Origin: Escherichia phage SHEFM2K
Sequence record: PQ390715.1
Strand: one strand, 5' to 3'
Length of the DNA stretch: 64,000 nt
Below are positions 20,920-24,108 of this stretch, in pieces; within the stretch, counting starts at the first letter, position 1, and each line of letters starts with the position of its first letter. The position numbers and the translations under genes were made by a program. Under the pieces are notes generated by a model. That model saw only the letters and a program-made list of their open reading frames with translations. It was not told where the DNA came from and searched no databases.

Positions 20920-23583
20920 ATGGCAGATACAAGTAAAAAGTATGCACAACAGCAGTTGGGTCGTTTTGACCCATCTTATCCGCAGTTAGCAACTGTTATG
21001 GATAACAGAGATCCAACTAAATCAGGAAAACTGAAAGTTTGGATACAAGGTTCTCAAAGTGATAAAAACTCAAAAGAATCATGGATAGAAGCATCTTACA
21101 TGTCTCCTTTTGCTGGTAAAACACCAGGTATTCCAAGTGCTGATGCATATGGTCAATATCCAAAAGGATACGGTTTTTGGGCAGTACCACCAGACGTAGG
21201 GTGTACAGTTGTTGTAATTTTTGCACAAGCCCGTACATTCCAAGCATATTGGATTGGTTGTGTATATGACCAGCGTATGAATACTATGGTTCCAGGTATG
21301 GCAACTGAAGTAAGTAATTATGGTGGAACTGATATGCCACTTCCTGTTACTGACTATGATCGTAACACTATCACTACCGATATGCAAGACAAATATGCTA
21401 ACGTTCCAATTATCGCAGGTCTTAAAAAGCAAAACCTTTTATATGACGAAGAAGCTGGGTTGGCAAATCGTAGTAGTACTCGACAAACCACCAGTACTGT
21501 ATATGGTATGTCTTCGCCACGTGGTAATAGTTTTATTATTGATGATGGATATACTGAAGAGGAATTAACAGCACCAACGTGGGATCAAGACCCAGATGGA
21601 TATCAAGATACACAATTTAATAACCCAGTAAACGATACACGTGTTGGTTCTCGTAAAAATGAAGGTGTCGTAATAAAAACACGTAGTGGTGCACAACTTC
21701 TTTTATCAGAAGCTACTGGTGATGTTCTTTTAATTAACCGTGATGGCACTGCACGTATAAAATTCACTGGTGAAGGTGATATTGACATGCACTGTGATAA
21801 GAATATTAATATTCGTGCTGGTCAAGATATTAATATTACTGCTGGACGTTCATATAATATTGAAACCGGACAAGATTTCAATGCACGAGTTGGTGCAAAT
21901 ACTAAATTAGATCTAATTGGTGCTCTTGATGCAAAAGTTGGTGGACAAGTTGTTGTTAATTCTGGGGCAGACCTTCGTTTAGTTACGGCTGCATCATTAC
22001 GTATGCAAAGTGGTAGCAGTACTGATATTACGGCTGGTTCAAATGCTTCTATTTCTGCCGCAACATCTGCAAACCTAATTGGATCATCATCAGCAATTAT
22101 TAGTGGTGGTGGTCAAACATTAACAGTTAATAGTGGTGGTAATAGCGGCACTGCTGAATTTACTGCACCAAACTTTAGAACACCATCTGCTGGTCTTAAT
22201 GAACACATTCATGATATTGCTGCATGGGTTAACGCTGAAAATCATGGTAGTTATGTTGAACCACCAAGACAAGGTGGTGGAAGTGGTTCTAGTGAATCAC
22301 CAGTACAACCACAACCAGCAAATGATGTATCACCAGAATTACCCGTAGCACAAGACACTGAAGCTGTTCAGTTTGTTAACTATACATCAGAAACTGAACA
22401 AGTTCAATCACAAGATTTGATGACATCTGATCCTGGGATGACTGGATATAGTATTACATATGAAGGTTTACATATGTTAATGCCATGTAGCGGTACTATT
22501 CGACAATATGGTTACTGGGGGAAAGGTGTTCCAACACAAAGTGGAGGAAAGGCAGACCGTTCAGGTTGGGAAATACAATGTAAAGGTGATGTAGTTGCAC
22601 CAGATGGTGGCGTGGTAGTAATTACTAATGGTGCTCTTTTAATACAACATAAGTCTGGATATAAATCTATTTTTTATAATATTCAATCTGATTTATTAAA
22701 CAAAGATGTTGTTCAAAAAGGTCAAGTTGTTGGAAAAGCAAATGGTGTCATACAGTTTGAAATTCGTGTTACATCAGCAAATGTTCTTGGATTCAGTGGT
22801 TCTGTTGACCCAGGATTATTTTATGCTTCACAAACAGGAACAGGGTCTGATGCGGCGAATAAAACATTAATTGGTGGTCAAGCAACTAATCAATCTGCTC
22901 CAAAAGCAGTTGTACAACCTTCAGTTGATAGTGATGAATTGGTAGTTACAACAAAAATCAAAACGATAGGTACTGGATATTCTCAACGTGGTTCTCGTCA
23001 TGTGCCTCGTAGAAGAAGAACACAGAGAAGTGGAGCTTCAACAACTCCGGTGGAGCAACCTACCTATAATATTGGAAATGTTGATAAAACTGCAATCGAT
23101 TGGAAAGTTGTTCCAGGTGATGCACAGTTTATTTCTGAATTAAAAGAATATGAAGGTACATTACAATACCAACAAGCAAAAGGATATTATCGTAATGGTA
23201 AATTCTGGCGTTATTTGGATAGTCGTGGGTATCCAACTATTGGTTATGGTCACTTGATTATTAGTGGTGAAAATTTTTCAGATGGAATAACTGAACAGCA
23301 AGCCAACGATATGTTAGTTCGTGATAGTAGTAAAGCTATATATGATGCTAAATCAATTTATGCTTCATATAACATGAAAACACCTTATTTGGCTCAACAA
23401 GTACTATGCCAAATGGTATTCCAGATGGGTAAAGGTGGGGTACTTAAATTTAAAACTATGTTGTCTGAATTAGCTAAAGGTAATTATAAACAAGCTGCTG
23501 CTCAAATACGTAATTCAGCTTGGTATCGCCAAACTACTCGCCGTGCTGAGTTAATGGCTCGTCGTTTAGAGGCATGTCAATAA
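20920..23583 (+). CDS. 5: gp5-like baseplate hub / cell-puncturing protein: N-terminal OB-fold, beta-helical repeats, M23-peptidase-like region, C-terminal T4-type lysozyme domain; 887 aa
   Basis: N-terminus (VMDNRDPTKSGKLKVWIQG...GFWAVPPDVGCTVVVIFAQ) fits the gp5/gpV OB-domain pattern; VGANTKLDLIGALDAKVGGQVVVNSGADLRLV-type repeats; C-terminal TIGYGHL...MVFQMGKGGVLKFK...NSAWYRQTTRRAELMARRL matches the T4 lysozyme signature MVFQMG...SRWYNQTPNRAKRV. Confidence 0.75.
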   Translation: MADTSKKYAQQQLGRFDPSYPQLATVMDNRDPTKSGKLKVWIQGSQSDKNSKESWIEASYMSPFAGKTPGIPSADAYGQYPKGYGFWAVPPDVGCTVVVIFAQARTFQAYWIGCVYDQRMNTMVPGMATEVSNYGGTDMPLPVTDYDRNTITTDMQDKYANVPIIAGLKKQNLLYDEEAGLANRSSTRQTTSTVYGMSSPRGNSFIIDDGYTEEELTAPTWDQDPDGYQDTQFNNPVNDTRVGSRKNEGVVIKTRSGAQLLLSEATGDVLLINRDGTARIKFTGEGDIDMHCDKNINIRAGQDINITAGRSYNIETGQDFNARVGANTKLDLIGALDAKVGGQVVVNSGADLRLVTAASLRMQSGSSTDITAGSNASISAATSANLIGSSSAIISGGGQTLTVNSGGNSGTAEFTAPNFRTPSAGLNEHIHDIAAWVNAENHGSYVEPPRQGGGSGSSESPVQPQPANDVSPELPVAQDTEAVQFVNYTSETEQVQSQDLMTSDPGMTGYSITYEGLHMLMPCSGTIRQYGYWGKGVPTQSGGKADRSGWEIQCKGDVVAPDGGVVVITNGALLIQHKSGYKSIFYNIQSDLLNKDVVQKGQVVGKANGVIQFEIRVTSANVLGFSGSVDPGLFYASQTGTGSDAANKTLIGGQATNQSAPKAVVQPSVDSDELVVTTKIKTIGTGYSQRGSRHVPRRRRTQRSGASTTPVEQPTYNIGNVDKTAIDWKVVPGDAQFISELKEYEGTLQYQQAKGYYRNGKFWRYLDSRGYPTIGYGHLIISGENFSDGITEQQANDMLVRDSSKAIYDAKSIYASYNMKTPYLAQQVLCQMVFQMGKGGVLKFKTMLSELAKGNYKQAAAQIRNSAWYRQTTRRAELMARRLEACQ

Positions 23584-23595
23584 ATATTTTAGTAC

Positions 23596-23603
23596 TATAA
23601 ATA
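23596..23603 (+). promoter_or_regulatory. T4-type late promoter octamer TATAAATA upstream of the free-standing lysozyme gene
   Basis: Exact octamer 17 nt upstream of the ATG at 23620. Confidence 0.55.
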
Positions 23604-23619
23604 AAACGAGGATATCTTT

Positions 23620-24108
23620 ATGAGTAAATGGGAAATTAAAAATACAGATGAGCAATTTTTTAAGGAAATTAAAGAATTTGAAGGAACTATTGCTTATCAG
23701 AAAAAACTTGGTTATTTTAAAAATGATAAGTTTTGGGTATATAAAGACAGCTTAGGTCTTGATACAATTGGCTATGGTCACCTAGTTTTACCTGGTGAAA
23801 ATTTCAAGAATGGTTTAACAGAAGCACAAGCTGACCAACTTCTTCTTAAAGATGCTCAAACTGCGTACAATGATGCAAAATCAATTTATGAACAATTTGG
23901 TATGACCGCACCTATACAGGTTCAACGTGTATTATGGTTGATGGTATTCCAGATGGGCAAAACCAAAGTTTTAAAATTTAAAAAAGCAATGACCGCATTA
24001 GGTAAGGCTGATTATAAAACTGCTGGTAAGGAATTGCGTGATAGTACATGGTATAAACAAACCACTTCAAGAGCGGAAAAGATGGCACGTATTGTTGAAT
24101 CCGTATAA
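23620..24108 (+). CDS. T4-type lysozyme (GH24 family), free-standing paralog of the gp5 C-terminal domain, 162 aa
   Basis: DTIGYGHLVLPGENFKNGLTEAQADQLL...MVFQMGKTKVLKFKKAM...DSTWYKQTTSRAEKMARIV; size and motifs as T4 lysozyme; roughly half the residues match the gp5 C-terminal domain by eye. Confidence 0.85.
   Translation: MSKWEIKNTDEQFFKEIKEFEGTIAYQKKLGYFKNDKFWVYKDSLGLDTIGYGHLVLPGENFKNGLTEAQADQLLLKDAQTAYNDAKSIYEQFGMTAPIQVQRVLWLMVFQMGKTKVLKFKKAMTALGKADYKTAGKELRDSTWYKQTTSRAEKMARIVESV

Follow-up and report, generated by a model that had tools for sequence, protein, structure and literature searches.

Organization of the spike locus

A gene for a central spike protein of 887 amino acids (aa) and, directly after it, a gene for a free-standing lysozyme of 162 aa occupied positions 20920-24108 of the 64,000-nucleotide (nt) stretch of Escherichia phage SHEFM2K analysed here (PQ390715.1; the whole stretch is called the window below), with exactly the coordinates and lengths given in a preliminary description of this DNA (Table 1). 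The spike protein was composed of an OB-fold, a mid region, a beta-helical shaft and an apex-like segment, followed by a linker, a degenerate LytM/M23-fold domain, a second linker and a GH24 (T4-type) lysozyme domain at the extreme C-terminus. The window phage is a PBECO4/121Q-type jumbo coliphage (Asteriusvirus, approximately 350 kb); nucleotide identity over 20920-24108 was 99.8% to ECO103 4-12-1, slurp01 and SP27, 99.6% to PBECO4 and 95% to 121Q, and the spike gene had orthologs in PBECO4/121Q (gp587), RaK2 (gp078), CBB (CBB_240) and phAPEC6 (gp241). Orthologs for the comparisons were drawn from 12 diverged phages (RaK2, GAP32, CBB, fHe-Yen9-03, BF, Munch, EJP2, Hallingskeid, A4, JNE01, XaC1 and Vibrio phage 2.275.O) by tblastn on phage genomes, and an exhaustive HMMER search was added; a word-indexed protein database returned almost no matches to the middle region, whether the query was one sequence or a profile of 13 sequences.

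Table 1. Positions in the window of the spike gene, its predicted parts, the neighbouring genes and the late-promoter-like boxes.
Feature	Position	Strand	Basis
Upstream virion structural protein, 749 aa	18657-20906	+	PHROG 11190
Central spike gene, 887 aa	20920-23583	+	open reading frame (ORF) list; PHROG 13211 match end to end
OB-fold (gp5/VgrG Phage_base_V), aa 23-116	20986-21267	+	Pfam PF04717, E = 8e-7
Mid region, aa 119-254, many invariant columns	21274-21681	+	alignment of family
Beta-helical shaft, aa 255-418	21682-22173	+	DUF2345 (VgrG-type) at aa 278-329, E = 2e-8
Apex-like segment, HxH (H429, H431; codons 22204-22212)	22174-22257	+	family alignment
Linker 1, Gly/Ser/Pro/Gln-rich, acidic, aa 447-505	22258-22434	+	low-complexity sequence
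Degenerate LytM/M23-fold domain, aa 506-640	22435-22839	+	
Linker 2, basic (isoelectric point, pI, 10.4), aa 641-726, RRRR run	22840-23097	+	alignment
C-terminal GH24 (T4-type) lysozyme, aa 727-887, E745/D767/T773	23098-23580	+	Pfam PF00959 (aa 765-882), E = 1.5e-11
TATAAATA box (T4-type late-promoter consensus), then GAGGA at 23608-23612	23596-23603	+	
Free-standing GH24 lysozyme, 162 aa, pI 9.3, E21/D43/T49	23620-24108	+	Pfam Phage_lysozyme
gp25-like baseplate wedge gene	24124-24519	+	Pfam GPW_gp25, E = 1.2e-8
TATAAATA boxes in the window	3858(-), 5067(-), 11018(+), 12907(+), 17557(+), 23596(+)		

The spike part of the protein

The OB-fold scored 29.8 bits against a cut-off of 23.8 bits, was also present in all relatives scanned, and showed ratios of non-synonymous to synonymous substitution rates (dN/dS) of 0.006-0.10. 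The mid region that follows it sits where T4 gp5 carries its lysozyme domain and was partly kept in PA5oct and Atu_ph07; it gave no Pfam or PDB sequence match and no lysozyme signal, and the possibility that it is a relic of a T4-style internal lysozyme was rejected for want of any sequence signal in the Pfam scans. The shaft is presumably a trimeric beta-helix, and its family profile matched VgrG1 (4uhv, 1.2e-5), other VgrG spikes and a T4-like gp5 helix in the PDB.

An L..HxH motif (H429-I-H431) was invariant in 19 of 19 family members, with variable surroundings, and linker 1 started about 15 residues past it. A match of this region to the C-terminus of VgrG1 (4uhv) was discarded as an artefact of the His-tag of that construct. 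For spikes of the P2 gpV/phi92 type, an HxH that closes the helix is accepted as indicating an Fe-binding Apex domain, and an apex-like tip with a putative metal site is suggested at this point of the chain. The position of this invariant apex motif in mid-chain argues for an architecture in which a complete spike is followed by a cargo tethered to its C-terminal side.

The window spike resembles P2 gpV and phi92 gp138 in having an OB-fold, a beta-helix and an HxH approximately 12-15 residues short of the point where the ordered spike ends, and differs from them in that their apex is the C-terminus of the protein. The likeness to T4 gp5 lies in a spike built of OB-fold and beta-helix that takes a GH24 enzyme into the periplasm, in a second, free GH24 paralog in the genome, and in the gene order (gp53-like, spike, gp25/gp6-like). 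In T4, however, the OB-fold is followed by the lysozyme and then by the C-terminal helix, which is capped by a separate PAAR protein, gp5.4, whereas the window spike has its lysozyme behind the HxH, with an additional dead LytM domain, and the free paralog adjoins the spike gene. A simple scan of the window for a PAAR motif gave nothing relevant, which is weak evidence. The layout was unlike that of T4 gp5, as the preliminary description had stated, and its placement of the beta-helix in the middle of the protein was borne out, though the conserved HxH apex motif had been overlooked.

A degenerate LytM domain

The region after linker 1 had been described as related to M23/LytM peptidases with substituted zinc ligands, and both statements stood up to the searches. 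Peptidase_M23 was absent from the Pfam results on the whole 887-aa protein; when the segment was scanned alone, the match to Peptidase_M23 (PF01551; E = 1.2e-4, 22.6 bits) stayed below the gathering score of 28.7 bits. The 13 sequences (the window protein and the 12 orthologs) all matched M23 at E <= 1, with a best value of 1.1e-6, and two diverged relatives, P0004 (30.1 bits) and P0006 (33.4 bits), exceeded the Pfam cut-off. A 16-sequence profile compared with all PDB sequences retrieved SpoIIQ, DipM and LasA (E of approximately 7e-7) and only M23-fold proteins among its top 20 matches, with EnvC lower. Comparison of the family with MepM (active) and NlpD and EnvC (degenerate) of E. coli, taken from the K-12 genome, gave an hhalign probability of 96.6% (E = 6.6e-10). 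The domain subfamily was rare: an exhaustive HMMER search of 1.84 billion representatives placed it in only 8 real clusters. Seven were spike proteins (872-984 aa) that shared one architecture and had the domain at an equivalent relative position, and the eighth was an 84-aa coliphage fragment.

When the family was aligned to MepM, the HxxxD ligands fell on R547 and E551 of the window protein, the catalytic His of 'YMHL' (YxHL) on N587, and the two histidines of 'HLH' on V610 and Q612 (V610-I-Q612). No His was present at the HxH or YxHL columns in any of the 19 family members, and the GxTGxxxGP loop that precedes HxH in M23 enzymes was deleted. The first-ligand column held R, N, S, H or T and the Asp column E, I, T or D, no member having both H and D; all five ligand and catalytic residues, taken together, were lost in every member. 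RaK2 and P0004 retain a His at the first ligand, E551 is a conservative replacement of the ligand Asp, and the 'FEIR' motif keeps E614 and R616 invariably, as might be expected if the domain were an active peptidase acting through non-canonical residues. The spike would then bear two hydrolases like phi29 gp13, which has both a lysozyme-like and an active LytM domain at the tail tip. Such an activity is extremely improbable given the missing HxH and YxHL histidines, the variability of the first two ligand columns, the loop deletion and the presence of the dead SpoIIQ and DipM among the best sequence matches; phi29 gp13 also differs in its reversed domain order and in having no spike fusion.

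The dN/dS of the LytM domain was 0.03 (121Q), 0.12 (JNE01), 0.15 (A4) and 0.19 (RaK2), values similar to those of the beta-helix and the lysozyme. Low dN/dS combined with ligand loss points to a LytM domain that was anciently inactivated and is functionally retained under purifying selection; the M23 fold was found, and it was conserved without its metal ligands, as in degenerate LytM domains. The characterised domains of this kind (EnvC, NlpD, DipM, SpoIIQ and PrgK) mostly serve protein-protein contacts or regulation: EnvC, NlpD and DipM regulate amidases and transglycosylases, and PrgK, of the pCF10 type IV secretion system, has a LytM domain whose degeneracy was confirmed by crystallography and which down-regulates the muramidase next to it. 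Modules with an M23 fold are common among the tail, hub, tape-measure and internal proteins of phages, and phage 812 reuses a dead CHAP fold in its baseplate, as lid and connector. By analogy with these systems, the LytM domain of the spike most likely holds or gates the neighbouring lysozyme, or docks it on peptidoglycan or on another protein. It differs from the characterised domains in having insertions of its own (YGYWGKxV..., GFSGxVDPG) and a deleted pre-HxH loop, and in occurring only in spike proteins.

Linkers and exchange of the C-terminal cargo

The highest dN/dS values in the spike gene were those of linkers 1 and 2. Two motifs of linker 2, S-x-(E/D)-L-V and I-G-x-x-Y-x-Q-R-G-S, were kept from coliphages to the Vibrio phage and were followed by a basic run (PRRRRTQR here); they could provide a docking strand or another binding element, or a processing site. 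In an AlphaFold2 (AF2) monomer model of aa 512-887 built from an 8-sequence alignment, linker 2 (aa 630-717) was predicted to be disordered, with predicted local distance difference test (pLDDT) scores of 23-43.

Nucleotide identity to 121Q was 99-100% in the spike half of the gene, approximately 84-96% from about 22400 to about 24900, with 84-92% over the cargo half, and 99-100% in the flanks. The low-identity patch covered the half of the gene encoding the degenerate LytM and lysozyme domains, the free lysozyme gene and the gp25-like gene, and the number of synonymous substitutions per site (dS) with respect to 121Q was 0.5-1.1 inside it vs. 0.01-0.03 in the N-terminal spike half. A recombination boundary is therefore located in linker 1, where identity drops at about 22400. 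An HNH endonuclease gene (approximately 770 nt) is present in 121Q (gp584) and JNE01 at the position matching 24572/24606 and absent from the window phage, and co-conversion or recombination connected with this mobile gene may have produced the patch.

Two outgroup homologs carried other C-terminal ends. That of PA5oct (gp350; L019:4414-5847) was a bare spike of 477 aa, with neither an enzyme domain nor the HxH, and that of Atu_ph07 (865 aa; L020:4468-7065) had the same spike core and a low-complexity linker followed by a different cargo that ended in a trypsin-like peptidase domain (Trypsin_2, E = 6e-17). The region before Trypsin_2 showed a faint transglycosylase-like signal (E = 0.038). Together with the boundary in linker 1, these outgroups support a modular reading, according to which the family is a conserved spike with a variable C-terminal enzymatic extension, the layout of an evolved VgrG rather than that of T4 gp5. 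Evolved VgrGs of the type VI secretion system carry C-terminal effector domains, e.g. V. cholerae VgrG-3 with its peptidoglycan-degrading domain. The window spike shares with them a conserved spike, a linker, a swappable cargo and a sequence-related helix (DUF2345, VgrG1), and differs from them in starting at the OB-fold, without a fused gp27-like module, and in being a phage virion protein and not a component of a secretion system.

Two copies of the lysozyme

The C-terminal domain of the spike and the 162-aa protein scored 45.2 and 36.6 bits, respectively, with PF00959 (cut-off 22.3 bits), and the spike domain matched the gp5 lysozyme and T4 lysozyme (T4L) in the PDB at approximately 4e-11. 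In an alignment with T4L, the catalytic Glu, Asp and Thr (E11, D20 and T26 of T4L) were intact in both copies. The spike domain was helical in the AF2 model (pLDDT 71-92) and strongly conserved (dN/dS of 0.02-0.21), and it is a complete T4-type domain, predicted to be of the working type.

The two copies shared 83 of 158 residues (53% identity; BLASTP, E = 3e-57) and were 59% identical at the DNA level. Their dS was approximately 1.7, close to saturation, and the duplication is therefore old. With respect to T4L, both copies carried 13 additional residues between the catalytic Glu and Asp and lacked the loop region of T4L 35-51. In neighbour-joining trees the free copies formed one clade, with a bootstrap of 78/100 that fell to 65/100 when the free copy of P0004, a deep metagenomic relative, was added; they were never sister to the spike domain of their own genome. 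The P0004 free copy was 51% identical to the other free copies and 38.5% identical to its own spike domain (sister in 0/100 replicates). Recent gene conversion between the copies was considered unlikely, since within-genome identity (39-62%) was not systematically higher than the between-genome mean (51%) and dS was saturated; in the GAP32/CBB/BF lineage the within-genome identity was 57-62%.

The free gene lay directly 3' of the lysozyme-coding end of the spike gene, and among the genomes examined it occurred only where the spike carries a lysozyme. It was absent from Vibrio phage 2.275.O, the P0006 contig and PA5oct, where the gp25-like gene follows the spike gene and no lysozyme gene separates them. 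In RaK2 (L001:4709-6494), four small ORFs, two per strand, were seen between the spike and free lysozyme genes; the remaining 11 of the sampled genomes with a free lysozyme had these genes side by side, 12-38 nt apart. The simplest history that the sequences suggest is that the 3' end of the spike gene was duplicated once in tandem and that some marine lineages lack or have lost the free copy. The complete C-terminal lysozyme domain, the match of about half of the residues between the copies and their origin by duplication, all proposed in the preliminary description, agreed with the intact triads, the pairwise alignments, the insertion and deletion shared against T4L, the single clade of free copies and their adjacency to the 3' end of the spike gene.

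Role of the 162-aa lysozyme

Orthologs of the 162-aa protein include LysUE1, 121Q gp586 and CBB_239. LysUE1, the UE-S1 ortholog, which has the same start sequence, is muralytic in vitro, and more so with ethylenediaminetetraacetic acid (EDTA) (PMC12805682). By mass spectrometry (MS), the ortholog was undetected in the virions of phAPEC6, CBB and further phages of the Rak2-like group, in which the spike and the gp25-like protein were detected. It had previously been proposed that the 162-aa protein is a separate endolysin with its own late promoter and that the M23-like module is a non-catalytic cell-wall binder. T4 itself has such a pair, the gp5 lysozyme and the lysozyme of gene e. The greater activity with EDTA, as in Gram-negative endolysins, the absence from virions, the lost ligands of the LytM domain and the TATAAATA box 16 nt upstream of the gene are in line with this proposal.

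Between the TATAAATA box and the ATG of the 162-aa gene there are 16 nt, and the leader would be only about 11 nt long. Six such boxes were found in the 64 kb on both strands, against approximately 16 expected from base composition; for five of the six, a called ORF of the same strand began 16-47 nt downstream, and the sixth (17557) preceded the ATG at 17600 by about 35 nt. 121Q has an annotated late sigma factor (gp591) beside the spike module, and it is plausible that the boxes are T4-type late promoters. Upstream of the free lysozyme gene, however, the exact box was present only in the window phage, JNE01 and RaK2; eight other lineages had a degenerate box or none, and XaC1 had only 12 nt between the spike and free lysozyme genes. 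Of the proposed promoter, the box itself stands, but the proposal is weakened by its lack of conservation outside JNE01 and RaK2.

The gene context also told against a main endolysin. The spike gene was flanked by a gp53-like gene, the 749-aa virion protein gene and gp25-like and gp6-like genes (Pfam, PHROG); with gp53-, gp25- and gp6-like neighbours the locus is therefore a baseplate operon. In every examined genome in which it occurs, the 162-aa gene lay between the spike and gp25-like genes, and neither a holin nor a spanin gene was its neighbour. The protein had no hydrophobic N-terminal segment, signal sequence, or transmembrane (TM) or signal-anchor-release (SAR) segment; its maximum Kyte-Doolittle value over 19 residues (KD-19) was 0.91, inside the fold. 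A third GH24 gene, 121Q gp532/CBB_187, encodes a lysozyme fused to LysM (Phage_lysozyme, 1.7e-11; L014:18192-19118, outside the window); its GH24 domain was 31-34% identical to both copies and had the same 'N-x-K-F-x-x-Y-x-D' insertion. It is the published endolysin candidate (Buttimer et al. 2017, PMC5259590) and is reported to have a TM segment at its N-terminus; the 121Q annotation has an Rz-like spanin in the gp532 region, approximately 8 kb away, and not at the spike locus. The main endolysin is thus likely the product of this LysM-lysozyme gene, which lies apart from the spike locus, and the 162-aa protein probably serves as an auxiliary lytic or assembly-phase enzyme. Of the earlier endolysin claim, the muralytic activity and the absence from virions remain, while the baseplate operon, the lack of a lysis cassette and the published LysM-GH24 candidate speak against the rest. 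Known degenerate LytM domains, moreover, act mainly on proteins, and the combination of a cell-wall-binding module with a promoter-driven endolysin is, overall, rather unlikely.

The strictly kept position between the spike and gp25-like genes would also suit a low-copy baseplate or hub component, i.e. a structural paralog of the spike lysozyme, and CBB_239 has been given as possibly baseplate-associated (Buttimer et al. 2017, PMC5259590). This role is improbable in view of the MS results cited above, in which the gp25-like protein and the spike, presumably at 3 copies, were found and the lysozyme was not.

Proposed function and weight of the evidence

Considered as a whole, the locus probably encodes a Rak2/121Q-type baseplate spike with a tethered dead LytM domain and a GH24 cargo, together with a 162-aa protein that is an old duplicate and acts as a soluble muramidase. 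The OB-fold would dock the spike on the hub and be followed by the mid region, the trimeric beta-helix and the apex-like tip with HxH, behind which a flexible linker would carry the dead LytM domain and the GH24 lysozyme with its intact triad. By analogy with T4 gp5, the contracting sheath would push the spike across the outer membrane, where its tethered GH24 domain would cut peptidoglycan locally and let the tube pass. The dead LytM domain may have been kept as a non-catalytic adaptor or regulator near the lysozyme, as PrgK, DipM and EnvC suggest, and the 162-aa duplicate as a soluble, active muramidase outside the virion, auxiliary in lysis or acting during assembly.

Several points weigh against this account. 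The apex assignment is based on a three-residue motif that also occurs at internal fibre positions, according to the same papers that define Apex domains, and 456 residues follow H431, unlike in any characterised Apex domain. The AF2 model of aa 512-887 contained two well-folded domains with no confident placement relative to each other (predicted template modelling score, pTM, 0.47), and with linker 2 disordered a fixed interface between the LytM and lysozyme domains is unsupported. A binding partner of the dead LytM domain is suggested by analogy with other systems, and the topology that indicates duplication had moderate bootstrap values (65-78%). The spike ortholog was found by virion MS in phAPEC6 and CBB (for CBB, Buttimer et al. 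2017, PMC5259590), with the published data covering 4-10% of the spike orthologs, which does not establish the C-terminal half in the virion.

That low coverage would be compatible with cleavage of the LytM and lysozyme half at linker 1 or 2 during assembly, so that this half would act as a chaperone-like element or a freed enzyme and the virion spike would end at HxH as in P2 gpV. An HxH apex is normally C-terminal, the flexible linkers contain short conserved motifs (S-x-E/D-L-V, RRRR) that are possible processing sites, and T4 gp5 is itself cleaved in assembly. Cleavage is nevertheless improbable: the Pfam scans revealed neither a protease motif nor an S74-type chaperone domain, the virion lysozyme would be lost despite its strong conservation, and the MS tables give gp241 as 95.9 kDa, a figure calculated from the gene. 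The tethered-cargo account is also preferred to a further proposal, which is very improbable, that the dead LytM domain is an EnvC/NlpD mimic that switches on the host amidases AmiA/B/C, or a lysozyme gate triggered by release, and that these spikes are phage evolved VgrGs with a cargo threaded past an Fe-capped tip.

Neighbouring genes

The 749-aa protein encoded upstream of the spike had no Pfam match and no PDB sequence match, and its identification as gp27 by sequence was dropped for this reason. Its ortholog phAPEC6 gp240 is a virion component, and from gene position it is a possible candidate for the hub partner of the spike. Further upstream, the ORF at 17510-18331 (243 aa from the ATG at 17600) covered only positions 265-507 of the 507-position PHROG 12050, and its protein may be fused to an upstream partner in some phages. 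Downstream, a very large virion structural gene (approximately 28100-38100) followed the gp6-like wedge gene; it is the ortholog of 121Q gp582, which encodes a protein of approximately 3,300 aa in 121Q and of 382 kDa, as gp245, in phAPEC6.

Relation to published work and significance

The core make-up of the locus is already known, LysUE1 having been characterised and the CBB genes described (Buttimer et al. 2017), and the additions made here are incremental. For CBB_240, an N-terminal gp5 OB domain, a C-terminal lysozyme and a possible central M23 domain (pfam01551, E = 6.5e-4) were reported, with the same M23 region in other Rak2-like phages, a layout unlike T4 gp5 and an adjacent T4-type lysozyme, CBB_239 (Buttimer et al. 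2017, PMC5259590). CBB_240 and CBB_239 are orthologous to the two genes of the window and have the same order. The loss of the M23 catalytic residues, the HxH apex motif, the duplication and the modularity of the cargo were not analysed in that paper (PMC5259590), and in the literature searched no report was found of the family-wide loss of M23 residues under purifying selection, of the mid-chain HxH apex motif, of a single old duplication or of the modular-cargo view with PA5oct and Atu_ph07.

These findings do not overturn current understanding. They do call for caution in annotation, as 'Peptidase M23' is here not a peptidase and the PA5oct 'tail lysozyme' has no lysozyme, and the 162-aa lysozyme LysUE1, which has been explored as an antibacterial, is probably not the main endolysin of its phage. 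If the EnvC-mimic or gate proposal were true, a phage muramidase and a regulatory LytM module would act together in breaching the wall. If the details hold, the spike would be a clean natural example of a contractile-tail spike with its wall enzyme as a C-terminal tether and not as an internal domain, with a dead LytM domain conserved across enterobacterial and marine jumbo phages. Two questions would thereby become approachable: how domains follow an apex-type tip, and, with PrgK as a precedent, how virion lysozymes stay silent until penetration.

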